From contig JAHRHZ010000068.1 in NCBI GenBank assembly GCA_024137785.1, forward strand, positions 1,479,425 through 1,543,424: a stretch of 64,000 nucleotides of DNA. The letters run 5' to 3'. Positions 17,201 through 59,070 of the stretch are shown one piece after another (the stretch's first letter is position 1; each line of letters opens with the position of its first letter). The DNA comes from Ginglymostoma cirratum. Taxonomy: Eukaryota. Under the pieces are notes generated by a model. It saw nothing but the letters and a program-made list of their open reading frames with translations. It did not search any database and had not been told where the DNA came from. A program made the position numbers and the translations under genes.

Positions 17201-17603
17201 ACAGCTTTAAAGAAAAATGTGCCTTTTCTAATTAGTATTGTACCTAAAACAAAATTGCTTCATTCTACTACGCTGCATTCTTGGTCCAATGGGCTTTTTA
17301 TATTTCCAGGAATTAAGTTGGTAAATGAAGACTATTTAATTCATATTTTATATGTTAAATAAAAGGATTTCGTTGTGATGGTGGCTGTTATTGAAATAGA
17401 ATACCATAGCACTTCAAATCCCTTACTTCCATCAATATAGTTTAGTAACAGTAATTTGCACTGGTGACCCCTTCTAGGATGTCCAAATGCTTCTTTTTGA
17501 AATAGTCACTGTTCTAATGCGGACAACTATAGCACTTAATTTACACACAATAAGATTCCACAATTAACAATGAGTTAATTAACCAGATAGTTTATTCGAT
17601 CTG

Positions 17604-17733
17604 AGGTAACAAGGTGTGGAGCTGGATGAACACAGCAGGCCTAGCAGCATCAGAGGAGCAGGAAGGCTGACGTTTCGGGCCTAGATCCTGCTTCAGATTC
17701 TCCAGCATCTGCAGTTCCTACTATCTCTGAAAC
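17604..17733. mobile_element. Penelope-associated short element with internal inversion and 15-bp TSD
   Basis: The minus-strand body (CTGAAGCAGGATCTAGGCCCGAAACGTCAGCC...) is joined to the plus-strand tail. TSD agtttattcgatctg (17589-17603) / agtttatttgatctg (17734-17748). Confidence 0.8.
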
Positions 17734-20700
17734 AGTTTATTTGATCTGTTTGTTTCTGTAAACTTATTCCAGAAAGGTCACCAATTTTAATCATTTCTGT
17801 TACTTGATTTTACAAACACAATAAGTGAATTATTATTTGTAATCCTTGTGCTCTTTAACCTAAAACCACTCAGTTGATTTCAGGTATGCTATATCACAAC
17901 TGTCAAAACAAAACAGTTAACTGTCAATTGTACTTACATCTGTCATCAGTGCAAAGTCTTGTGGAGGTTACTTTGCACATTTGATCCCAAAGTGACCACC
18001 AGGTGAGATTTCAATCCAGGTTGGATTTTTAAAATAGGTATTGATTGATTTAGAGCATTGACACACAGGGGAACACTATTAGAGACTTGGGTAATCCTGG
18101 TCAGTATCACTTACCTCTCACTCATTGTTTACAGGGAAATATTAGAAGGTATCTGTGAGAAGATTGCTTGTCTATTCTCATGACTGGAACATGTTAAACT
18201 GAAATGATATTTAAAAGAGGGGACAGTAATGAAACTCACCAAGGGTCTTCGACTTGCATTAATATTTGCTCATCACAATATCTTCTGGGAAAATGTAATG
18301 CTCCAGATTTTCTGATCGGCTGATAGGCGGGAATTGGGAACCTTGTGGATTCCCAAGCATAGTAGACCTAAATGAATTGCCTGAGATATTGACAATTCCA
18401 CTGGGCATTTCCCCCAAACTCCAAAGAGCCATCTAAAGGTCTCATTTTAAATTGGAGAATTTCAAGAGTTCTGATGAAATCGAGTAGTTACTCAGGAGAA
18501 GTAAGACTGTTAAATGTATAGTCTAACCTTTGATCCCATACTCACGCACAACCAAATTTATCTCCTACCACTTACCTTTCCACCTGCTCTGGGCTTGACC
18601 CCCTTCACCTAGTTTTACAACTCCTGTCACACTGATACCCCTCCACCTGCACCAGACCCAAACCCTTTCACCTGCTCTAGACACTACCGCCCCTTCAGAC
18701 GTGGGATCTGACCCCTTTCCCTGTTTATCCCTGTCTTTGGACAACTTGAGGCCCTTTGCTTACAATTAGTTTCATTTAACTGTCACTGCTATTCAATTTT
18801 TTGTTCAGCCTCAGTATTTCTCAAGTGGACCAAGCAAACAGTGTTTGTGGGCTTCCTTCATTCTTGTTCTTAAATGCAGTGAATTATCAATGGTTCCCTG
18901 AGCTTCTTCTTAGCCATGATTCGGTACAACACAGTCAATGACATTCGACCACCAACTGTTAAGTTTTCAGAACTTTTCCTGAACCCTGACTGCCTGGAGA
19001 CTGCTAATAGTAGCACCACTGCTGGACAGGATCCTCTTTGCTGTGCTCTGAAACCTATGACTGATAAGTGGCCCAAAGGTAGCAGCCTCCTGCTTTGACT
19101 GCCTCTAACCAACTGCCTGGTTGTCATGGGTTCCCCTTCCGATCACTCCCTGGTCTTCTTTTCATCCTAGAATCCACAGTACAAATGCGTTTGATGCTAT
19201 GAACATGACATGTTTCTCACATGTACCAGAACTCCCAGGCCATGTTGGAAATTGTTGATCACAGGCATCATGGCAACACCGTGATGAAGCATTTGCCTCA
19301 GCCTCCCAAAACATGTTATAATTTCTTCAAAAATCATTTTTTCAATCTCACTCCTTAATCTTGTTATAATGATGATCTCTTGACGCTATTCTACCAAAAT
19401 TTTCATGATGTTAAAAATGTGTTAAATCTCATATAATCCTTTTCATCTTCAATGGAAATTTTCATGTGCCACAATTTTCTTTTAAATTGTTTGCTATTGT
19501 TTACTATTTCTAACACGATTTTGGTGAATTTAGCTATATAGCTCCCACTGGTCTTTATATAGTGGGGTACGCAAACTAAACATGCAAATTGAATTGTAGT
19601 TTACCAATGTTTTGTATAAATTTCTATTTATTTGTTGATTGTTATGCTTTATGCTTTAACAGTAAAATCCAAAATGTTGGCCCTTGTATCCGTGTTATTA
19701 ACCATTCCACTAATTTGTCTATATCTTCTTTATATCTTTTACTGTCTTTTAAATCGTTTACTGAATCTCTATTTCTCATGTTAACAGCAAATTTGACAAT
19801 TATATTCACAAGCACAAAGATTTGTACATGTGAGAGCAAAATAAAATAAAAATGGAACATGCAATAATCCCCTAATGTACACCACATCTTTCTGTTCAAG
19901 CCAGTTAGTCATACATTTTCATCATTCAGTTTTCAATCATACTCATATATCTCTTGTGCCATACACCTGAATTTTTCCAGTAATCCTCTTGTGAGATGTC
20001 TTAATGAGTAGCTTCTGAGGCACCCATGCACTGATTAGTTTTATTTCTGTTTCTTTGCTAATGTTATTTAAGAAATTAGCAAGTGTAAAGTTGCGGAGTC
20101 TGCCTAATACTCATCCTGACATTTTCACAAAGAGTAAATGGTGAAAATGAACTGCACTAAAACAAAAGCAAAATACAATGTATATTTCTGTGATACTAGT
20201 TATTAATTGGAGTAAGTGCAGTAGGTAGTGATTGCTCAATTTACGTATAAATGCTTTCACGATGTTGGCTGTTGTGTTTAGTAATACTCCAATATGGTGT
20301 GATGTTTGTAGTAAAACAGCAGATGATGAATTGGTGAAAACAATGCACATATTCTGAAGAGGCACATTTTAATGTGTCTTTTGGATCAATGATAATATGC
20401 ACAAATGCTGCTAACATATAGTAATTCTGAGTTAATAAGTTATTTCCTCGTTCCTTTCTCATTCTGTGGTCAAGGTACAGACATGCACTCACCCAAAATG
20501 TTCTTAACAGTTGTTGCCTATTTTGAGCAATGGTTAGTATGGCACTTGGCAGACCTCTTCAATTTTGTTCCCTCCCTAAGAGGAGTTTCCTCCTTTTGTA
20601 TCTGAAATATTGACTCAGTGTGAAGGATAGCAATGTAAGTTCAGCATCCTTTGGCCTACTCACATTTTGTTGAATTTTTCAGGGGGCTGCAATATAATCA

Positions 20701-21509
20701 TAGTGAAGATAGTAAAGCTAACGGTTGGCATGTGCATGAAGTCACAAAAATGAGGTTTGAGATTTTTATGTTTTGGGATTGTGTTTTTAATTTAGCAAAG
20801 ATGAAGGGAGTTACGTGAACCGTTTTGAAGTTTGCCTGACTACAGGGCTCAGTGGTGTGGCTGTTTGAAAATTAAAGTGATACCAAGCTTGTATCAAGCC
20901 ATGCCAAGCTTCTGTGTTGGATTGTCTTTTTTGAGTCCGAGATATAAGAGCATTGGACTGTAATGGAGAACTAAGCAACATTTCTACAGGATACAAGGCC
21001 TGCGTGATGGGCTGGCATGAAGAGCGGATGGTTTCTAGGATATTCTTGAACTCAGTCAGACCAGTCAGTCTGGCAGGATTTGGGAGAGCGCGAGAGCATT
21101 TACAGACCACAAAACTCTGTGGTTCACCATGCAAGTCTGTGTGGGAGCTTGTGCTTGGGTTGAAATGACCTGATTCACGAGGAGGTAAAACAATGCTGGA
21201 AGATTTTCTTAATCTGTGTAACGGAAGAATTTCTGGAAAAGAAAGTTCACAATAAAAGCCAATAAAAGCCAAAACAGAAGCAAAATCCCAGGATCTAAGA
21301 ATCACCTTGCGCTGGTTCCAGCAGAAGTGAATATCTAAAGACTCTACAAAGGAGGTTTGTAAAGTGTGTTTTCAACAGTGCTAAAATTAAAAAAAACTGC
21401 TCTGCTTTATGGTGTTGAGCATAAATTGCACACACAAATTGTGTTTAGACAGAAGTGCTTTGCATGTTTTGTGAATATAAAAGTCTTAAATCAAGTAATT
21501 GTGTGATGC

Positions 21510-22204
21510 CGAGATAACAAGCATGGGGCTGGATGAACACAGCAGGTCAAGCAGCATCATAGGAGCAGGAAAACTTGACGTTTTGGGCCTAGACCCTTTT
21601 CTGATGAAGGGTCTAGGCCCGAAANNNNNNNNNNNNNNNNNNNNNNNNNNNNNNNNNNNNNNNNNNNNNNNNNNNNNNNNNNNNNNNNNNNNNNNNNNNN
21701 NNNNNNNNNNNNNNNNNNNNNNNNNNNNNNNNNNNNNNNNNNNNNNNNNNNNNNNNNNNNNNNNNNNNNNNNNNNNNNNNNNNNNNNNNNNNNNNNNNNN
21801 NNNNNNNNNNNNNNNNNNNNNNNNNNNNNNNNNNNNNNNNNNNNNNNNNNNNNNNNNNNNNNNNNNNNNNNNNNNNNNNNNNNNNNNNNNNNNNNNNNNN
21901 NNNNNNNNNNNNNNNNNNNNNNNNNNNNNNNNNNNNNNNNNNNNNNNNNNNNNNNNNNNNNNNNNNNNNNNNNNNNNNNNNNNNNNNNNNNNNNNNNNNN
22001 NNNNNNNNNNNNNNNNNNNNNNNNGCATCATAGGAGCAGGAAAACTTGACGTTTTGGGCCTAGACCCTTTTCTGATGAAGGGTCTAGGCCCGAAACGTCA
22101 AGTTTTCCTGCTCTTATGATGCTGCTTGACCTGCTGTGTTCATCCAGCCCCATGCTTGTTATCTCGGATTCTCCAGCATCTGCAGTACCTTTTATCTCTG
22201 ATAC
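21510..22204 (+). mobile_element. Palindromic Penelope-associated element with intact hammerhead core, spanning an assembly gap
   Basis: Inverted arms of about 90 bp. CTGATGA-AGGGTCTAGGCCC-GAAAC-GTC at 22072-22099. TSD aattgtgtgatgc at 21497-21509 and 22205-22217. Confidence 0.85.
21625..22024. other. Assembly gap (400 N)
   Basis: Run of N. Flanks 21554-21624 and 22025-22095 are identical. Confidence 0.99.
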
Positions 22205-22879
22205 AATTGTGTGATGCTGCCCTTTCATGATTATCTGGAAGTTTGAATTTTGTTTTAGAAAGTTACTGATCTCTACAGATGCAGCTGCAGATGCACTAGA
22301 TGTGTGTGTGCTTGCGCATCCCTGCAGCCAAGTAACCTTATAGAAGCAGGCAAGATGCAAGTGTTCCTGAGCTTCAAAATGAAGCTGTGAAGCGCGGAAG
22401 TGATGTGTAAGTTGGCCCGAAGGCAGCCGTAAGGATGTGGTGAGAACGGCCGTTTGCCAAGGCGTATTTGTGCAAGCAAAATGTTGAAAAGAAGTGTCCA
22501 TGGAGCAGGCAAGGAATGGTGGTGAAGGTGTAACTGGAAGAAGGGCTGAAGAAGCAAGCAGCAAGTTGCTGCCACCAACTTGTTGGGAATTGGTTGGAAT
22601 CTGGATTTTCAGGGAAGGAGGAAAGAATTGGAAGCCACATAGAAAGGAGGGGGAATTAGCTAATAATAAGTTTCAAATACAGTGGAAATAAAGTAGCTAA
22701 TGCTTAGTAGCAACATTTAGAACTTCCAGTTTAAATCTTAAGGGGAAAATCAGAAATAAGAAGTCTTTTTTTTTACTTTCACTTCTTAAACAGTTTTATG
22801 CCATTGCCCATGATTCTCAAGGGTGAAAATTTCCTCAAGAAAATTTCACTGTTGGAGTTTTGTTTTATTTCTCACTGGA

Positions 22880-24620
22880 ATGTGCTTTCTCTGAATGCTC
22901 TGAAATACCTCATTCACTGCATCTCTTTTGATGTATTCAATAACCTAACTTCCCAGTTCACTTCAACCAGCTCAGCCTTCATGCCTTCGTAATGGTCCTG
23001 ATTTAAATTTAAAGCGCTAATCTTAAATCGACTTTTCTCCTCCCTTAATCTGAATGTAGAATTCAATCATGTCATGACCACTATTAGCTAGAGGTGCCTT
23101 CACTGTTAGGTTATTAATTAACCCTTTCTCATTAAACCTTACTCGATCTAATATAGCCTGCTATTTGGTTGGCTGTAATGCGTGTTGCTCTGAGACCGTC
23201 CCAAAGATGCTCAGTGAATTCATATCTAGGCTGTTCTTGGCCTCATCCAGTCCATACATAGACTAAAATCACCCACAACATTTGCTGTACCTCTCTCACA
23301 AGCATTCTTTAGTTTTTCCTGTATACGCCATCTTGTGCTTACTACAAGGGAGCCTATATATGACTACCGCAAGTAACGTTTTATCATTATTATTGCTCAT
23401 CTTTACACAAATTGAGTTACAACTTGATCTCTGAACTATGTTAATTTCTCTTTATTGTACCGTTATCATTCTTAATTAACAGATGCATCCTCTGCTGTTT
23501 CCTAGTTTCCTGTCCTTCCATGTCTTCTACCCTCGAATATTCCAATCCCAGTCTGTCATCTTGGAGCCATGTCTCTGTAATGGCTACAAAGTCATACATA
23601 TGCAGTTCTCTTTGTGCTGTTTTGTAATGAATGCTGTGCATTTTCTGTCTTATTACTGTTTTTGAAACCTGTAAGCTTATGTGCTGGTGCATTCTTAGGT
23701 TTGTGTACTCTGTCCCTTCTTGCAATGTCCTGATCATAACTGCCTTATTGTTACCTTACGTTCCTTGCCTTGTTTTCTGTATTTAATTTATCACACATTC
23801 CCAAATTTGATCTTTTGCCACACTAATAGAGCTCTCTTTATTGCTGTCATTATACAGTTTACCAAAATATTGGTTCCATCATATTTTAAGTGAAGATCCT
23901 TCCAACAGTACAATTTCCACAGTTCCAGTGCCAGTGCCCCCTGAATTTTGGCCGGCAGGGTGGATCAGTGGCTAGCACTGCTGTCTCAAAGCACTATAGA
24001 CCCAGGTTAAATTCCACTGTCAGGTGGTTGTCTGTGTGGAGTTTGCACATTCTCCCTCTGTTTCCATGGGGTGCTTTGGTTTCCTCGAACAGTGCAAGTC
24101 AGGTGGATTGGCCATGCTAAATTGCCCCATAGTGTTCAGGGATGCATAGGTTAGGTGGGTAGCCATGAGAAATGCAGGGGTACAGGAGGAGGGTGAGTCT
24201 GGGTGAAATGCTGTTTGGAGAGTTCGTATGGACTTTTTGGGCCGAGTGGCCTGTTTCCACACTGTAGGGATTCTATGGAATTCTCTGGATTCTGTGGAAT
24301 GGAAACCCATTTATCCCACATCAATATTTTACCCACACATTTAATTCTCATTACGTTTGGCTTGGGCTAATTTGCTCATTGCTCAGCTTGCAATCCAGAG
24401 GTTTGATGTTATGCTTTTTAGTTTAGCCTCTGGGCTGCTCATACCCCTTGAACAGAATCTGTTTCTTGGTTCTGCCTACACCATTTGAATTTATATGGAC
24501 CATGGTAACTGGATCCTCCCCTTCCAGTATAAGTTGCCATCAACTCCAGAGTAGATGTCCCAAAACCTGCTCCCAAGTAGCCGACATATGTATTGGGTTG
24601 CAGAGAACCGTGTCACTTCC
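22880..24620 (-). mobile_element. Degraded CR1 LINE (ORF1 end and endonuclease region), interrupted by an HE1 SINE
   Basis: Minus ORF 23441-23737 contains YDFVAITETWL, the APE endonuclease motif. Flanks resemble the 39590-42990 copy. Confidence 0.65.
23951..24277 (+). mobile_element. HE1 SINE (V-SINE), full length
   Basis: tRNA-derived head (gtggatcagtggctagc...ggttaaattcc), V-domain tgtctgtgtggagtttgcacattctcc...ggtttcctc, gattggccatgctaaattgcccc, and HER1-type tail ggcctgtttccacactgtagggattctatg. Confidence 0.9.
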
Positions 24621-24804
24621 CTGTTTGTATTGTCCCTTACTATCACTACAGTTCTGGTTCTATAAAAACTGCTACAGTTTCCTGTCTCATAGTGCCATAG
24701 TCATTTTGCTTATCTAGCCTGAAATCACTACTTTCAACTAAATGGGATGTGAGAACGTCAGACTTGTTGACCAGTTAAAAAGACTTGAGGCTACTGCCCT
24801 TCTA

Positions 24805-26040
24805 CCTGCAAGGAAGAGGGTTGATGAGTGCAGAGTGGTGGATATGATCTTTATGCACTTAAGTAAGACATTTGACAAGGTCCCTCACGGTAGAGTGGTA
24901 AGCAAGGTTAGATCACACAGAATACAGGGAGAACTAGCTATTTGGATACAGTACTGGCTCAAAGGTAGAATACACGGGGTGGTGATGGAGGGTTGCTTTT
25001 CAGACTGGAAGCCTGTGACCAGCAGTGTGCAACTAGGATCGGTGCTGGGTCCACTGCTTTTTGTCATTGATATAAATGATTTGGATGTGAACATAGGAGG
25101 TATGGCTAATAAGTTTGCAGATGACACTAAAATGGGAGTTATAGTGGACAGCAAAGAAGGGTACCTCAGAGTACAGCGGGATCTTGATCAGTTGGGCCAA
25201 TGGGACAAGGAGCAGCAAGATGGAGTTTAATTTAGATAAATATGAGGGGTTGCATGTTGGAAAGGCAAATCAGGACAGGACTTATACACTTAATGGTAAG
25301 GTCCTAGGGAGTGTTGCTGAACAAAGACACCTTGGAGTGCAGGTTCATAATTCCTTGAAAGTGAAGTCACAGGTAGATAGGATAATGAACATGGTGTTTG
25401 GTATGCATGTCTTTATTGGTCAGTGCATTGAGTATTGGAGTTGGGTGGTGATGTTGCCGCTGTACAGGACTTTGGTTTGTCCACTTTTGGAGTACTGCAT
25501 AAAATTCTGGTCTCCCTGCTATGGGAAGGATGTTGTGAAACCAGAAAGGGTTCAAGAAATATTCATGAGGATATTGCCAGGGTTGGAGTGTTTGAGCTCT
25601 AAGGAGAGGCTGAGCAAGCTGGGGGCTATTTTCCCTGGAGCATCGAGGCTGACCTTATAGAAGTTTATAAAATCATGAGGGACAATGATAGGGAGAATAG
25701 CCAAGGTTTTTTTCCTAGAGTGGGGGAGTCCAAAACTAGAGAGGGCATAGGTTTAAGGTGAGAGGGGAAAGATATAAAAGGGATCTAAGTGGCAACTTTT
25801 TCACGCAGAAGGTGGCATGTGTATGGAATGAGCTGCCAGAAGTAGTGGTGGAGTCAGGTACAGTTACAACATTTAAAAGGCATCTGGATGGGTATATATG
25901 AATAGGAAGGCTTTAAAGGGATAATGGGCCAAATGCTGGCAAATGGGATTAGATTTATCTATGATATCTGGTTGGCATGGATGAGTTGGACCAAAGGGTC
26001 TGTTTCATGCTGTAAATCTCTATGACTCTATGACTGTATG
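24805..26040 (+). mobile_element. 5'-truncated HER1/CR1 LINE, RT C-terminal half plus 3' UTR
   Basis: ORFs 24742-25230 (KTFDKVPH, GSVLGPLLF, KFADDTK) and 25184-25660 (LYRTLVCPLLEYC) are joined by a frameshift. Ends in ctatgact tandem repeats. Confidence 0.95.
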
Positions 26041-27749: not shown

Positions 27750-30073
27750 ATGCCATCTTTGTCAGCTCCACTTAAGCAGTGCACAGCATGCAAGGATAAT
27801 GTGGCAGACTGTGTAGGGAGTGCACTGCAATGTCCCAAGACCACTCCCTCCCCTGGACAGACCCAAACATCAGAACCTCATCTTCAACAGCCCTGAATGA
27901 AGAATGGGGTGCATTGAATTAATGCTTGACCTCAGTCGGGAGTTTGCGCATTGAAGTCAATGGCTGTAGTCACAGAGTGTAGCTGTTGACCCCCAGTAAC
28001 CATTCCTGTAAGACATCTGGCTTTCAAATTCAGCAGGAGCAGGACTTCTCAAGGACAAACGAGTGATGGCAGCTCCTAGGATACCTGGCGTCGATTTCCA
28101 AGATAGCGGTAACAACGATCACAGATGATTTGCCCATTGACAGTTTGGAATCCATTTCCATAAGACCATAAACATAGGAGTGGAAGTAAGGCCACTCGGC
28201 CCATCGCGTCCACTCCGTCATTTAATCATGGCTGATGGGCATTTCAACTCCACTTACCCGCACTGTCCCCGTAGCCCTTGATTCCTTGCGAGATCAAGAA
28301 TTTATCAATCTCTGCCTTGAAGACATTCAACGTCCCAGCCTCCACTGCACTCCGTGGCAATGAATTCCACAGGCCCACCACTCTCTGGCTGAAGAAATGT
28401 CTCCTCATTTCCGTTCTAAATTGACCCCCTCTAATTCTAAGGCTGTGCCCACGGGTCCTAGTATCCCCACCTAACGGAAACAACTTCCCAGCGTCCACCC
28501 TTTCTAAGCCATGCATTATCTTGTAAGTTTCTATTAAATCTCCCCTCAACCTTCTAAACTCTAATGAATACAATCCCAGGATCCTCAGCCGTTCATCGTA
28601 TGTTAGGCCTACCATTCCAGGGATCATCCGCGTGAATCTCCGCTGGACATGCTCCAGTGCCAGTATGTCCTTCCTGAGGTGTGGGGCTCAAAATTGGACA
28701 CAGTATTCTAAATGGGGCCTAACTAGAACTTTATAAAGTCTCAGAAGCACATCGCTGCTTTTATATTCCAACCCTCTTGAGATAAATGACAACATTACAT
28801 TCTCTTTCTTAATCACGGACTCAACCTGCAAGTTAACCTTTAGAGAATCCTGGACTAGCACTCCCAGATCCCTTTGTACTTCGGCTTTATGAATTTTCTC
28901 ACTGTTCAGAAAATAGTCCATGCCTGTATTCTTTTTTCCAAAGTGCAAGACCTCGCATTTGCTCACGTTGAATTTCAGCAGCCATTTCCTGGACCACTCT
29001 CCGAAACTGTCTAAATCATTCTGTAACCTCCCCACCTCCTCCGTATTACCTGCCTGTCCACCTAACTTTGTATCATCAGCAAACTTCGCCAGAATGCCCC
29101 CAGTCCCTTCATCCAGATCATTAATATATAAGGTGAACAGCTGCGGCCCCAACACTGAACCCTGCGGGACACCACTTGTCACCGGTTGCCATTCCGAAAA
29201 AGAGCCTTTTATCCCAACTCTCTGCTTTCTGTCAGACAGCCAATCCTCGATCCATGCCAGTAACTCACCTCGAACACCATGGGCCCTCACCTTACTCAGC
29301 AGCCTCCCATGAGGCACCTTATCAAAGGCCTTTTGGAAGTATAGATAGATAACATCCACTGGGTTTCCCTGGTCTAACCAACTTGTTACGTCCTCAAAGA
29401 ATTCTAACAGGTTTGTCAGGCACGACCTCCCCTTACTAAATCCATGCTGACTTATTCTAATCCGACCCTGCACTTCCAAGAATTTAGAAATCTCATCCTT
29501 AACGATGGATTCTAGAATTTTACCAACAACCGAGGTTAGGCTAATCAGCCTATAATTTTCCATCTTTTGTCTTGGTCCTTTCTTAAACAAGGGGGTTCCA
29601 ACAGCGATTTTCCAATCTGTTGGGACTTCCCCTGACTCCAGTGACTTTTGAAAGATCACAGCCAACGCCTCTGCTATTTCCTCAGCCACCTCCCTCAGAA
29701 CTCTCGGATGCAGCCCATCGGGCTTCTATTGATGAAGTTGAACCTTTGGCCCAAAGAGCATCACTGAAGTGCAGAATCGTACCGTAAGCGGCTCGGAGAT
29801 GTGCCACGATAATGCAGTGAGACTGGTACATGTGGAATGCCAATTTCTGTGGATGTCGGGGTGTGCCTATAACCATGTCCTGAGGTGATGCTGCCGGGTG
29901 TCCAAGATGGAGGTCCAGAGCAGCAGGTGCTGAGCTGGAGTCCCTGATTTTCTGAGAACCTCATTGGTTGGAAAAATTTCATTTTTGGCTAGGTCCTTGC
30001 TCAACATCCCAGTTGATTTTTCCCAAATTTCTCATCATGGTCCATGTCATTCAGGGCTGTGAAAATTCCACCC
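27750..30073 (-). mobile_element. PIF/Harbinger transposase pseudogene remnant, split by a CR1 insertion
   Basis: Minus-strand motifs occur in HARBI1/DDE_Tnp_4 order: GIPHV, FINR|[CR1]|GFQTVNGQIICD, IDARYPRSCHHSFVL, WLLGVNSY, GLLKMRF*CL, TVCHIILACCAL. TIR-like GGGTGGAATTTT ends at 30073. Confidence 0.75.
28160..29722 (-). mobile_element. Relatively young 5'-truncated CR1 LINE (complete RT domain and 3' UTR)
   Basis: ORF 28688-29689 (333 aa: NYRLISLTSVVGK, FQKAFDKVPH, GVPQGSVLGP, FADDTK) continues in frame after one TGA into ORF 28244-28627. Confidence 0.97.
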
Positions 30074-33330: not shown

Positions 33331-34552
33331 ATTGATGGTAAATTAGGTCATGCTGATGAATAAGGAAAATGTTACAAAGAATCAATTTATATTTAATCAT
33401 TCATTTTGTATGTAAATAATGGAGATGACTGTACAACCAAAAAAATTCAGCTTACTAGAATCAAATAACAGGTAGTGACAAAGAAGAGCCAGTCTGCCAA
33501 AGCACACGCAATAAATGTTTGCAAAATAAAATTTAACTCCGTAAAAGTTGTCTTTTGTGATCAACAGTGGTCAGATGTTTGGAACTGGTCTAAACTATTT
33601 GTTTAATAGTAGGGGAGTAATCACATGGGGGAGGGGAATGGAAAGAGTGACTGAATTTATTTACTCAGATGTTATGCTGATGTAGGTGTGGAACTGAAAG
33701 TCACTGTGGGAACTGTGGGTTGTTTTTTGTTGGTATCTTCATAGTTCTGATGGTCATCGAATTTCCCAGCTTGTTGGTTTTGTTTATTCTGGACAGTGTA
33801 TGTTTGATTATTTATCAGAAGGAAAAGGGAGTAGCTTGGGCATAAAACTGACTGTGCTAGGTTTTATTTTTCCAGCAGTGTATAGTTTAGTACGTCGCAA
33901 ATCTTTTAAAGCCAGCATTCTATGGTATGATTTCTTTTGCTGAAATCTTTAATTCAATTCTAATTATCCCAAGTGTCGTTGTATCTTTAAGTTACCATTC
34001 AACGCTCCGGCCATTAATTTTCTCTAAATCCAACCTTTTATATCATTAAGGTTGGCTCGCTTTTTTTTTTATTTGTGAAATATTTTAATATATCCCATTT
34101 TCTTATTCTCCCACTCACAGCAACGAGGAATTCTTGGGTTTAGCTATATTGTAACATGCTAGCCAGCTCTTCATAATGCATTGTTCCTTTGGAAAATTTG
34201 ATATCTCCTGACAATCATCCAACAATATAGTCTGAAAATGGCATACTATTTTCATGGAGCAAGGAGACAATGGCATGCAACATTTTTTGTTGATATACCT
34301 TTATGTTGAATAAAAGCCCTGTTTAAGCTTAAAGAGACTTACTGAATGTAATTTGGCAGAATTATATGTGGCATTGTCATCAATCGAAATAAATCTAATG
34401 TATCTATTTAAAAAAAGGGTGTTGGTTTAAGCGGCAAAACAAACTGTATGAAGTGCCAGTTGTGGTAACCCTTCTTTGTGTGATGGAGTCGTAAACTGTC
34501 CCATTGGGTCCATTTATGGTTAAAAGGTGAATGTTATTCTCTTTTTATGTAG

Positions 34553-34642
34553 GCTTTTCAAGTTGCACGACAGCTCCTGCTGCAGCAACAAGCCAGTGGG
34601 TTAAAGTCTCCCAAGGGAAATGACAAGCAACCGACCTTACAG
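34553..34642 (+). CDS. FOXP1: Internal coding exon (90 nt, phase 0/0) of a FoxP forkhead transcription factor, N-terminal Q-rich region; best match FOXP1
   Basis: Acceptor tattctctttttatgtAG (34551-34552) and donor CAG|GTAAGT (34643). Translates without stops as [30 protein letters not shown]. Compare FOXP1 [34 protein letters not shown] and FOXP2 [30 protein letters not shown]. FoxP family is near certain. The FOXP1 call rests on NDKQPxLQ and on the upstream alternative-exon similarity. Confidence 0.85.
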
Positions 34643-37600
34643 GTAAGTGTATATTTATAGATTATATATAGTGTGTGTGTTCGAATCATTATGGGAAGAA
34701 TATGTCAGTGTACAACGGCCATGTACCATATTTATTGGAATAATGCAACATAATTAGTATAAAAGATTGTAAAAACTCAATATGATGCTATGTACTAAGG
34801 AAGTGGTTTGTTATGTTAGAGATATTTCATTTTCTAAGGGAATTTTTAAAAATTTAACTGTCTTGACCACCTTATTTGTGCAAATCCAAATACTTTGAAA
34901 TGAGCAAACCAGCCAGATTCATAGTCAAACTAAGAATGTTGTCATCGAGGGCACTCTTTTATAGTGGATTCTGTAACAGAACCCATGTGAATTCTTATCA
35001 AGGCTGGACACCCCCCCCCCCCCAATTTGAGATCATTATTAATATGAGTTTTAGTAATGCATTCAAGAAGAATTAAATGTGTACTATATTTATTCTAATG
35101 CTGCCTTAGATCTTTGGCATTTATATTTGCATCTATTCTGTACTAATGATTTTTGTTCTCTTCGTTGTCCCATTCAGAATCTACATTAAATGAAATGCTG
35201 TCCAGTCGTATGAATTCCTACCATTTTATTGGTCTCAATAAAATCATAAATTAAAAATATTCCACATTCCCCTAAACCCAGTCTAACATTACCATATTTT
35301 ATTGGTAAAGAAAGACTCATATCAGCTATTATACTTTCAATCTTAAGAAAGAAAGCTAAATATGACGTTTCAATTATATGTTTGGAAATTTGTTCTCACT
35401 TTTTAAGAAGGTGCATCTCCCCTAACTTGTCCTGTCCTCCACTGACATCTGTGCACAATGGGGTGAATTTTCTGGACCTGTTTGAGCACAGAAAATGAGT
35501 CCAAATATACCAGTGCTGGCTGGCTTGCCAATTGCCCACTGTTCTAGGTGCCACCATTCTTGTGAAGTAGCTTTGGGCTTGATTAGATTCACTGAGGGCC
35601 TTGTTAGCCAGGGTAAAGAAGGCTGACTAGGACTTTCCTTTTGGCTTCCAACTTCCTGACATGACAGAAAGCAGTTTGACTGCCTGGAGGCATGTAGCCA
35701 TTGGCCAACAGGCCAGGAACACTCTGGACAGGCCTACAAACCTCCCTGCCTGCCTGGATGTAGGAGAAGGATAAGGCCATTCAGCAAAGCGATACAAAGC
35801 CCACCTGCAGTGATGGCCTGGCTGATTTTTCTCTTCCATGATTACAGTTATAAAATAAAACAATGAGCAGTGCCTTCAGGTTGAAGCATCCTCTCAGTTA
35901 CTTAACTTTTGCTGCAGCCACGTGCTCTTTTCAAGCGAAACATCATCTGAGTGACCCTCCAGCCTTGAGAACCTGCCTTCTGCCCTTAATTGGACGGGGA
36001 GCCTGACTCCATGCAATTAGGTGGAGTTGTTGTCAAAATCTCAAATATGTCAGCTTCCTGTCTTCCCCCATCCACCATTCCTTCATCACCAATCAGGATT
36101 GAGACCAAGAACCAACTCCTGTTTACCACCCTAAACTTCAGAGATCAGGTAGTTGTCGCACAAACCAGCCATTGGGCTTGGATTCTCATTGGGTTAACTT
36201 TACAGATCTTTTAAAGGAAGACCAAATTTCATTTATAATCTATACAGATTTCTTGACAGTGAGCATGACATATGTTGGAAAAAGATTTTTAGTTAAAATC
36301 AGATTTGTAATTCAGGGAACTCAAGCTTCAGGTTGTCAGCTGCTGAAGGGCTAATATTGAAACTGTTTGTGAGTGGGCAGCAAACTTTGAGTGGCTGTTG
36401 CAAAATATCTCACATCGCTGACAGATGCCATCCTTCACTGAAACACTAAAAAAAACTAGTAACTTAAATGACAGCAAAGAAACTCGTCTTTGCAATTAAT
36501 TGATTGGCACAATTGAAACTGAATTTGGACAGTACTTCCCTCCTCCTGTAATACCAGGAACACGTCAGCAGCTGAAACAAGACAATACGTGCAAATATTC
36601 TGTCGCAAACTATAGCTGCATTCATTTTTGTGCGCACTGGATAACCTTTAATATTTTTACCTTCAGCACCCTACCAAGAATGGTAGGGATAATGGACTTA
36701 CAATTTCAACTCTATTCGTGAAAGTGAGCCCATCATTTAGGGTTTGCTGTTGCATTCAGTTGCAAAAAATGTTATTTACAGTGAACTAATATTCGTGTCA
36801 ATTGTTGAAAGGTGTAGGAATATTCATTCTCTAGCGTGAATTGGATCAATAAATTGTTGTTTGCTAGTCTGAATTTTTGATCTGCTGACCCTTCTTTAGC
36901 TTAAGACTTGGACTTTTCTCGCTTTAAGTGAATGAAGTATCATTTTTCTTTTGCCATCATTAGTTTTCATTTGTTGCTTGCAGAAATAAATATGAATACT
37001 GCTTGTGGATTATATGAAGCAGATATTGTGTAAAATGTTATCAGCTTCTCATTTTGGAATGTGAAATATTGCCTGGAGATGTATAACATAACTCTCCAAG
37101 TTGATGTACAGCGTAACATTTTGAGGAAGGGCAAAAGACAAACTAACTGTGCTGGACTGGTCATAAGTGTGCAAATTGCTTACAATTTTCCTCAAATGTC
37201 ACGTGTAATTATGGACATCCCTTCCCCCACTACTTGGTTTACCCATAGAATCTTACAAAAGAGACTCCCACCTAGCTAATTAACATTATCACTGAAATGG
37301 TAGGGTTGAGTCATTAGTTCCATGTGCATTTAATTAGAGGCAGACTGAAATTGGATTTAACTTATTACTTTTCATGGATCACTTTCTTGTCATCACTTCA
37401 AATTGGATTGCAGCCCCAGGTAACTAATTATAGGAGCCACAGGATCAAGAGTGAAGAAGAAGGTAATTAGGAACCACAGCGTTGGACCCTTGCTGATAGT
37501 CCACTAGTACTGTGGAAAAAATATAGTTTTATTTCGTAGCACTGCTGCAAGCAGGGGCATTAAAATTGTGGAAATAATATTCTGCTCTGTCTGGAATCAT

Positions 37601-45922: not shown

Positions 45923-46086
45923 GCTGGAGAAACACAGCAGATCTGGCAGCATCTGCGGAGAGACAAATAGAGTTAAATTTTGAATTTAACATGCCTCTTT
46001 TTGCATCAATACTGTCATGCTGGACTCAAACATTAGCTCTGTTTCTCTCTCCACAGATGCTGCCAGATCTGTTGAGTTCCTCCAGC
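45923..46086. mobile_element. Older palindromic Penelope-associated element
   Basis: gctggagaaacacagcagatctggcagcatctgcggagaga and tctctccacagatgctgccagatctgttgagttcctccagc are inverted arms. The remnant ggactcaaacattagctc resembles 41105-41125. Confidence 0.75.
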
Positions 46087-47029
46087 CCTTTCTGCTTTTA
46101 TAATGTTTAAACAAGATTTGTTTGGCCTTTAAATTTCCTATGATTGTGACCACACGACTGCTGTAATTCTGGCAATAGTTTGACATAAATTAGGTTGGTT
46201 TCCACCAAACTTACAGTCAAATTATGGAGATAGAGCAAGAGCAGCACTCAGGAAATTCTAGGCTTGTAACCTCGAGTTCAACCTAATGCCAGAATGGAAC
46301 GTTTTGAGTTTGAATATTCAGTTTACATGCTGTTCAATTTTTGGCTTCATCGAATTCAATGGAGTGTGAAATCATGTTAGTGTAAATCAGGCTCCTACCT
46401 ACACCTTTTTATCAGACATTTTAGACTAAAATTGGTTTATCAGTCTTTTTGTATTGTGTGGAGATCTGGAATCTGCATAAGTAGTCTCCTTTTCATTTGC
46501 TGTTACATAGAATTGCGTCAAAACCACTTATTGCTTTTTCACTCAACTGAAGTTTCTATATGCCGCTAGGAGGCATATTGCATCTGCCTTCTGCCTTCTC
46601 TCCTCCAAGCTTATTCAGGAATTTCCCATGTAAGTACAACAGAGTTTGCTAGCTTGACACAATTTACACTTGATCAGATATAGTGGTGCAGTTAGGGTAC
46701 TGAACTGACAATCCAGAGAATGAGGGTTCAGTTCCACCATGGCAGTTTTAGAGCTGTAAGAACTAACTGGTTCACTGAGTGCAAAATCATGTCTGGCCAA
46801 ATCTGTCAAGACAAAGATTCTTCTCAGTACCCACTTGATCTTTCCACTGTCACAGATGCCATCTTTAGCTTTGCTCTACTTGAATCTTTAGATTCACTCT
46901 ACTTGATATCAAGAAATGACTAAGTGCACTGTACACACCAAAAACTGTTGCAGATATTGCAGCATCTCTATCCAAATTGTTCCCATACAATAAAAACCCT
47001 CCACTGTAAGTAAAAACTTTCAGGTACAT

Positions 47030-57734: not shown

Positions 57735-58205
57735 AGGTAAGGCTGTAGATTTGCTCGCTGACCTGATGTGTTTGGTTGCGGATGTTTCGTCACCCTGCTA
57801 GGTAACATTGTCAGTGTGCCTCCTGGTGAAGCGTTGGTGTTCTGTCCCTCTTGTTATTTATATGCCTCGGTTTGCTGTGGTGGTTGGCATTACGTCCGGT
57901 TCTGTTTTTCAGTGGTTTGCATATCGGGTCAAGTTCAGTGTGTTTGCTGATAGAGTTCTGGTTGGAATGCCAGGCCTCCAGGAATGCCCTGTCATGTCTC
58001 TGTGTGCCTTGTGCTGTTATGGATGTGTTGTCCCAGTCGAATTTGTGTCCTTCTTCTTTGTCTGTGTGTATTGAGACCAGTGAGAATTGGTTGTTCGTGT
58101 ATACTTATTGTTAGCTTTCTTCCAGTTTGGCCTATGTAATGTTTCTCACAGCCTTTGCATGGTATTTTGAATATTATGTTGGTTGTGGCTATGGGATCCA
58201 AGCTA
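57735..58205 (-). mobile_element. Penelope-like element 3' remnant: GIY-YIG endonuclease plus pLTR with hammerhead motif
   Basis: NIIFKIPCKGCEKHYIGQTGRKLTISIHE, then after a frameshift SLVSIHTDKEEGHKFDWDNTSI...RAFLEAWHSN. Downstream is CTGACAA-TGTTACC-TAGCAG-GGTGAC-GAAAC-ATC (57814 to 57781). Confidence 0.9.
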
Positions 58206-58945
58206 CAAATCTTCTTAAAAACTTCAAACTTTGGAGGTAGTTGCATTTATCATCTCCATTTTGATGCCCACACCTTCTGGCGTTTGATCCCAAATGATTC
58301 TCAGTGGTTAATTTTGTAGAAATCTAATACAAATGTAAATTTTAATAATTATTAATTTTATGAATATTGCTTGCTTCTTTCACCTGTCTCTAATAGGTTA
58401 TTAGAGTTGTGATAGAACCAAGCAGTATTCTTCTCATGCCTGTTTGACCCCCATCGGCTACAAAAGTTTGCCACTCAGCTGTCTTCTTGTACACTACAAA
58501 GAAATTTCCAAGTAGTTCTGAGGTTTTAGTGTGTTTTACACTAACTCTTGTACAAATGGGAATGTAAATGACTAGACCAGGAAAGTCATGTGCATTGATC
58601 TCTAGAGAATAACTATGAGTATAACACCTTTATTTGTGTCTTGGCCAATTAGATATATACTTTTGAATTAATGCTTAGTCTAGGTCACTGTGAGAAAGCC
58701 TGTTCAACAATTCTAGGAAATAGATAGAATTAATTCTTAACCATTTTCCCTGCTTTCCGCTCCAATCCATCCATGTCTACTGCTCTGATCTACAAGGCTT
58801 ATTTTTCTCTCCCCTCAACCCTGCTGACTAGCATCTTCCCAATAAAAAAAATCTGACCACTGTGCTTTTGTCACCCAAAATCCCACATCTCATTGTACTC
58901 ACAAGAAAGTTGAATTTTGAAGCACTGAAAGCTTCTTTAAAAGCA

Positions 58946-59070
58946 GAAGGGTCTAGGCCCGAAACGTCAGCCTTCCTGCTTCTCTGATGCTGCTTGGCCT
59001 GCTGTGGTCATCCAGCTCTACACCTTGCTATCACAGGTTCTCCAGCATCTGCAGTTCCTACTATCTTTGA
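58946..59070 (+). mobile_element. 5'-truncated Penelope-associated short element
   Basis: gaagggtctaggcccgaaacgtcagccttcctgct...ctccagcatctgcagttcctactatct; same family as 17604 and 21510. Confidence 0.85.

Follow-up and report, generated by a model that had tools for sequence, protein, structure and literature searches.

Two head-to-head pLTR ends of an abundant Penelope-like element very probably make up a hammerhead-bearing palindrome in a FOXP1 intron of Ginglymostoma cirratum

An intron of the Ginglymostoma cirratum FOXP1 gene carries a palindromic insert with a hammerhead ribozyme core on the sense strand. Is this insert a retroelement in its own right, spreading without a protein of its own, or a remnant of a larger element, and how did its two arms come to face each other? 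The insert occupies positions 21497-22217 of the 64,000-nucleotide stretch analysed here (hereafter the window), that is C68:1500921-1501641, between the first two FOXP coding exons found. FOXP exons flank it on both sides on the + strand, at C68:1434570, at window position ~34553, and at C68:1566716 and beyond. The forkhead exon has its best match in FOXP1 (33/34 to 2kiu), and the placement in a FOXP1 intron made in the first-pass annotation therefore stands. Another FOXP exon compared was less discriminating than the forkhead exon, and an ESM Atlas comparison of the first FOXP exon gave no usable match. The exon at about 34550-34645 (+) is the sole FOXP1 coding exon found in the window.

The insert is bounded by a perfect 13-bp direct repeat (21497-21509 and 22205-22217). 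In two of the four runs examined (X2 and X8), a single contig joins position 21510 to 22219. Both runs are from a relative, organism B, in two different studies, and their flanks differ by about 3-4% from those in the window. Because the contigs of the relative carry the uninterrupted empty site with a single copy of the repeat, the repeat is a true target site duplication (TSD), as had been proposed. The absence of the insert from the relative places the insertion later than that split. Together with the low divergence of the arms (2/90), this agrees with the young age initially assigned to it. In runs X1 and X10 the site is unbridged by contigs.

The inverted repeat of about 90 bp reported previously was recovered at 21509-21598 and 22078-22167 (90 nt, 98% complementary, two mismatches). 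The bounds of the 720-bp span are real, but the span includes a run of 400 N (21625-22024) absent from the earlier description. The 71 nt to the left of this gap (21554-21624) are exactly duplicated to its right (22025-22095). Gap sizes in the examined DNA are stereotyped (n=16: 400 in 12, 10 in three and 100 in one). Several of these gaps coincide with pLTR palindromes, while the 71-nt flank overlap is unique to the gap at 21625-22024. No contig across this gap was found in the four runs examined. Given the stereotyped gap sizes and the exact overlap, the insert is likely about 237 bp long plus the TSD once the gap is discounted. As judged from the assembled sequence, the gap is most likely a placeholder without missing sequence, and the second copy of the core an assembly duplicate. 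Other young pLTR palindromes (L053:5506-6137, L059:4551-5057, L012 and L029) likewise have a 400-N gap at their apex; such pLTR stubs therefore recurrently break the present assembly.

From left to right, the assembled insert comprises an inverted, tail-less pLTR arm (21509-21598, - strand, pLTR positions 9-98), which is without the core CUGAUG and exhibits a CpG transition at G12; the beginning of the direct arm, in the copy assembled to the left of the gap (21599-21624, +), with which the duplicated 71-nt stretch ends; the gap, at the palindrome apex; the inner part of the inverted arm in a second assembled copy (22025-22069, -), likely the assembly duplicate; and a direct, tailed pLTR arm (22070-22204, +, positions 1-135), recognised by its identity to copies of the parent element. 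The last 37 nt of the direct arm (22168-22204, +) form a one-sided "tail" between two clusters of pLTR 3' ends, at ~96 and ~130 (see below; PMC11167929, PMC8557442). An inverted, 5'-truncated pLTR, a 37-nt tail at one end and a 13-bp TSD are the features of an inverted-pLTR insertion of a Penelope-like element (PLE). A T/C difference at 22114 was considered as proof of two templates and rejected as an ascertainment effect, since the similarity search had selected the rare T allele (1/26 in unselected young copies; C in about 97% of the depth of run X1).

The hammerhead core is read directly from the sequence at 22072-22099 (+) as CUGAUGA-A-GGGU(CUAG)GCCC-GAAA-CGUC, with the predicted scissile bond after C22099. 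It has every element of a minimal type-I hammerhead (min-HHR) with a zero-loop palindromic helix III, as the first-pass annotation had recognised; the ACGU of helix III can form only in a dimer. Rfam hammerhead models are probably built around a longer helix I and a helix III closed by a loop. A covariance-model check of 20500-23500 found no Rfam hammerhead family at E<=10; what it did return were chance matches to hairpins, all scoring under the gathering thresholds. The core fits instead the published description of the minimal motif (PMC4209133). It shares with metazoan PLE hammerheads the full core, the extra nucleotide between 9 and 10.1, the G10.1-C11.1 pair, the loopless palindromic 15.2-16.2 and a short helix I, and its helix II has 4 bp against 7-8 in Schistosoma, as described in that source.

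Conservation across the family supports the assignment. A lack of excess conservation at the CUGANGA/GAAA positions, together with a failure to cleave, had been named beforehand as the result that would count against the first-pass proposal. In 94 unselected copies, 681 of 694 cells in the ten non-CpG core columns carry the majority base, compared with 6,399 of 7,042 in the downstream pLTR (column test, p=0.003). This contrast is tempered by the relatedness of the copies, by the trimming of alignment ends and by invariant columns at pLTR positions 37-59 that are equally conserved. The placement of the variation is more informative: N7 is free (T28/A32/C2), loop II is also variable, and the helix II pair 14-19 is U.G in 34/56 and U-A in 18/56. 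The CpGs of the core decay, with G12 changed to A in 13/80 and G16.2 to A in 18/80 copies, and the full core is intact in 24/56. This pattern fits selection in the transposing lineage followed by neutral decay after insertion. At 22106-22128 (pLTR 37-59), downstream of the cut site, most columns are as conserved across subfamilies (about 97%) as the core; this block is perhaps a protein-binding element.

The 135-nt arm has 1,115 first-look candidates in the genome; the 40 of these that were scored are 98-100% identical to it. By eye, 17 of the 30 top family loci extend upstream into a common C/T-rich sequence. In the 10-kb versions, this sequence leads to reverse transcriptase (RT) and GIY-YIG endonuclease (EN) ORFs on the same strand (PF00078 scores at its cut-off or slightly below, with E 1e-6 to 7e-7; PF01541 exceeds its cut-off). 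Both RVT_1 and GIY-YIG lie upstream of the same 135 nt in L033 and L040. No intact full ORF was seen in the parent copies examined, which exhibit frameshifts or gaps. The translations contain a DKG motif (IKPADKGG in L036), a CX4CxxC linker between RT and EN (CNRRKCYTC in L033, L036, L040 and L043), and a GIY-YIG domain with the CCHH motif including its two cysteines (VVYCIRCTRCGFLYIG...H...H); the CCHH, DKG and CX2-5CxxC definitions are those of PMC8557442. With DKG, CCHH and the linker present, the parent is, by these sequence motifs alone, an EN+ PLE of the Neptune/Nematis type. With RT and GIY-YIG directly upstream of it in other copies, the 135-nt arm is the pLTR of an autonomous element. 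The suspected link to Penelope is thereby borne out, whereas the notion of a separate protein-less element is not, given that parent and the variable junctions and ends described below.

To survey the family without selection, we took sixteen 50-kb blocks at round coordinates; seven, which consisted wholly of N, were excluded, a possible source of bias, and the nine readable ones amount to 438,659 bases. These contain 68 pLTR matches in 51 events, 17 of which are head-to-head pairs, and extrapolate to about 5x10^5 pLTR events in the genome. Fifteen intact cores in the sample correspond to about 1.5x10^5 (Poisson range 0.8-2.5x10^5, ignoring gaps and sampling bias). The 3' ends of the pLTRs fall into two clusters, 23/66 at positions 90-103 and 32/66 at 127-140 (two gap-adjacent ends dropped), and the distance between the clusters is that of the known tail (PMC11167929, PMC8557442). 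The 5' ends concentrate at the hammerhead border: 24/61 lie at -4 to +9, 14 of them at 0/+1 (seven gap-adjacent ends dropped). The other 5' ends are distributed as 23 further upstream, seven at 10-29, none at 30-33 and seven at 34 or beyond. A hammerhead cleavage product would begin at pLTR position 31. As BLAST end-trimming blurs 5' ends, the five starts at 34-37 were inspected by eye; that of B11 13360 could lie at ~32, close to the cut site. Solo TSD-bounded copies begin at the U-run, often with extra Ts.

Pairs were counted when they had a TSD of at least 8 bp, and an arm was called short when it ends at or before 103, some ending earlier. A long arm is paired with a short one in 29 of 30 TSD-bounded pairs, and in 17/17 in unselected DNA including the FOXP1 locus (p=3e-5 for 16/16). 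At shared-variant sites, differences between paired arms number 8 in 90, against 25.8 expected at random, so that the two arms usually derive from one source lineage; discordant arms occur in B11 and L044 (two shared sites each) and in L013 (one). Among nine compact gap-free palindromes compared, the junctions vary. Both arms reach position ~0 in three (B08, B15 and L018), two of them with extra bases in between, while L008, L012 and L023 share a junction type in which the inverted arm extends to position 4. Pairs form a continuous series in length, from about 140 bp to over 3 kb, and some include ORF sequence. Within the window, a head-to-head stub of this pLTR family, 140 bp long and older (82-87%), occupies 17599-17738; it too joins a long to a short arm and has an 8-bp TSD. 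Older solo pLTRs in sense orientation, whose cores are incomplete or decayed, lie at 58946-59070 (82%) and 617-752 (72%). Compact head-to-head stubs are dense near the FOXP1 3' end (C68:1685000-1745000, L153-L158; 22 matches in 98,800 bases).

The parent element, the TSD, the empty site, the tailed and tail-less arms, the two 3'-end sites and the 5'-end cluster upstream of the cut are thus established. The insert is very probably made of two head-to-head, hammerhead-bearing pLTR ends of this abundant protein-coding PLE, likely joined in a single integration rather than copied from a palindromic master. For its formation we somewhat favour, as a whole, two-nick, two-start priming on uncleaved RNA. 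The GIY-YIG/RT protein would nick both target strands 13 nt apart. One 3'-OH would prime reverse transcription at pLTR position ~135 and the other at ~98, and both cDNAs would extend to or near a fixed 5' end of the template at the U-run before CUGAUGA, where the two cDNA ends would be joined head to head. Since the insert keeps the 30 nt that precede the scissile bond, the template RNA would not have been cut by the hammerhead. The strict pairing of tailed with tail-less arms in unselected DNA, and the 24 of 61 5' ends at the ribozyme border against 0/61 at the cut, suggest that both strands prime on uncleaved RNA. These steps have precedents: in purified form, a PLE protein both cuts and extends the two strands, and it begins reverse transcription, on uncleaved RNA, at two internal sites between which the tail lies (PMC11167929); an inverted pLTR with a one-sided tail is described as typical PLE structure, which breaks short-read assemblies (PMC8557442, PMC3846280); and an internal promoter with a defined start is described in D. 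virilis, for Penelope rather than the present element (PMC2377424). Against this explanation stand a gap closure that no contig spans in the four runs, the fold-back self-priming discussed next, which has the same geometry and likewise predicts concordant arms, and the recurrent junction, which is also expected from a replicating palindrome.

A credible though less probable account keeps the same parent and derives the inverted arm from fold-back (self-priming) of one cDNA, or from an antisense template. The tail-less end would then arise by endonuclease resolution, and the fixed 5' end would be an endonuclease cut at ATT, not an RNA end. The concordance of most arms at shared variants is what this account predicts, self-priming has been proposed (PMC3846280) and so have EN-made tails (PMC8557442), and the 5'-end cluster reads CC-ATT-TCTGA where the anole protein prefers ATT (PMC11167929). 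However, solo tail-less copies with TSDs exist (B03 1291, B10 25529), and therefore ~96 is also a start site. The three junctions in which both arms reach position 0 and the discordant sites in B11, L044 and L013 also argue against fold-back.

It is improbable that the insert belongs to a separate palindromic, non-autonomous retroelement mobilised as a unit by Penelope proteins. Inserts of the pLTR without ORFs, solo or palindromic and bounded by TSDs, are indeed common, one junction type recurs at three loci, and non-autonomous PLE derivatives (retrozymes) exist (bioRxiv 10.64898/2026.07.22.740005). Against this, the junctions, both outer ends and the lengths are variable, some pairs include ORF sequence, and the insert shares 98-100% identity with the pLTR of copies that carry RT and EN. 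Like the retrozymes described in that preprint, the FOXP1 insert is ORF-less, PLE-derived and carries a type-I hammerhead; but retrozymes are head-to-tail tandem arrays with at least two co-oriented hammerheads, each unit bearing a complete one, whereas the FOXP1 insert is head-to-head with one intact core and its sole direct duplicate flanks the N gap.

The first-pass annotation had further supposed that the inversion reduces helix I to about 3 bp and that the hairpin silences cleavage, making the intronic insertion tolerable. Helix I is natively short without any inversion, 3-4 bp in young and about 2 bp in older unrearranged copies. The predicted hairpin does bury the ribozyme fold (P(helix II) ~0, ddG 51 kcal/mol), but even without the opposite arm folding prediction puts that fold 8-11 kcal/mol above the MFE with a helix I probability of ~0. 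The same FOXP1 intron also contains an intact, unpaired copy in sense orientation (C68:1438300; older subfamily, 85% to the reference), and of the unpaired copies counted from the first coding exon to C68:1645000, four are sense and five antisense (a tiny n). Lunse and colleagues reportedly observed cleavage by dimers in 2017. Single minimal hammerheads exhibited no detectable cleavage in vitro (PMC4209133), and the anole hammerhead requires the PLE protein (PMC11167929). Despite the predicted burial and the reported under-representation of retrozymes in Xenopus introns (bioRxiv 10.64898/2026.07.22.740005), it is thus very improbable that the inversion silences an otherwise active ribozyme and is why the sense intronic insertion is tolerated, as the short native helix I, the uphill fold, the unpaired sense copy and these published results make that idea unneeded. 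The core in the FOXP1 pre-mRNA is likely, on folding models, buried in the 90-bp hairpin, inert and decaying neutrally; a lone minimal hammerhead would likely be inert anyway. There is no sign of an effect on FOXP1, and the insert is likely harmless.

Other elements occur in the window and in other loci examined. Two short head-to-head pLTR matches (about 82%) at 45923-46088 may be a palindromic stub from another PLE family. Two overlapping frames at 57814-58246 (-) resemble the GIY-YIG end of a different, Poseidon-like PLE. The broken reverse transcriptase frames at 28247-29725 (-) and 24742-25657 (+) resemble CR1/L2 LINE fragments. A frame at L046:5750-6256 resembles the C-terminus of an LTR retroelement integrase.

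The architecture with head-to-head pLTRs and a one-sided tail, min-HHRs in fish pLTRs and opposite-strand pairs are already published. EN+ PLE insertions such as Pen2a_Av (PMC3846280; scheme in PMC8557442) likewise exhibit a TSD, a shorter inverted pLTR, a direct pLTR, a 30-40 bp tail at one end and assembly trouble at the inversion; compared with these, the FOXP1 insert has no ORF between its arms and is a minimal case of about 237 bp. Opposite-strand min-HHR pairs 100-700 bp apart, and solo motifs, are reported in PMC4209133, with about 4,000 motifs in coelacanth and 9,000 in Xenopus by a different search, against the roughly 1.5x10^5 intact cores extrapolated here; sharks are unnamed in the portion of its text examined. 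Poseidon of Anolis carolinensis (PAc, PMC11167929) shares with the present family two 3'-end/RT-start sites bounding the tail, and its extension of both strands on an uncleaved RNA template is likened to the model proposed here. PAc also shares an AUG at the start of helix II with the young subfamily. In PAc the main ORF is described as beginning at the position of the core AUG, whereas here the core AUG opens a 14-codon frame only (22075-22119), which is missing in older N7=A copies. The parent here also has the CX4CxxC linker that Penelope/Poseidon are without. In the open-access literature we found no report of PLE twin priming or of shark hammerheads, although evidence of 5'-end clustering, or motifs from sharks, could already be present in Fig. 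S2 of PMC11167929 or in the supplementary material of PMC4209133.

Taken alone, the locus is ordinary, being one among roughly half a million insertions of this kind; its value is collective. Short palindromic PLE stubs break assemblies, and placeholder gaps inflate the apparent size of the inserts. The strict pairing of long and short arms and the 5'-end cluster yield sharp predictions on how inverted pLTRs form and on the role of the hammerhead in PLEs. Tentatively, a single complex may extend both nicked strands, one from each RT start, on an uncleaved RNA whose 5' end would lie exactly at the 5' border of the hammerhead, probably the transcription start site. Some 10^5 intact cores would have spread in this way with the cleavage product almost never serving as template, and the conserved ribozyme would therefore have to act at another step.
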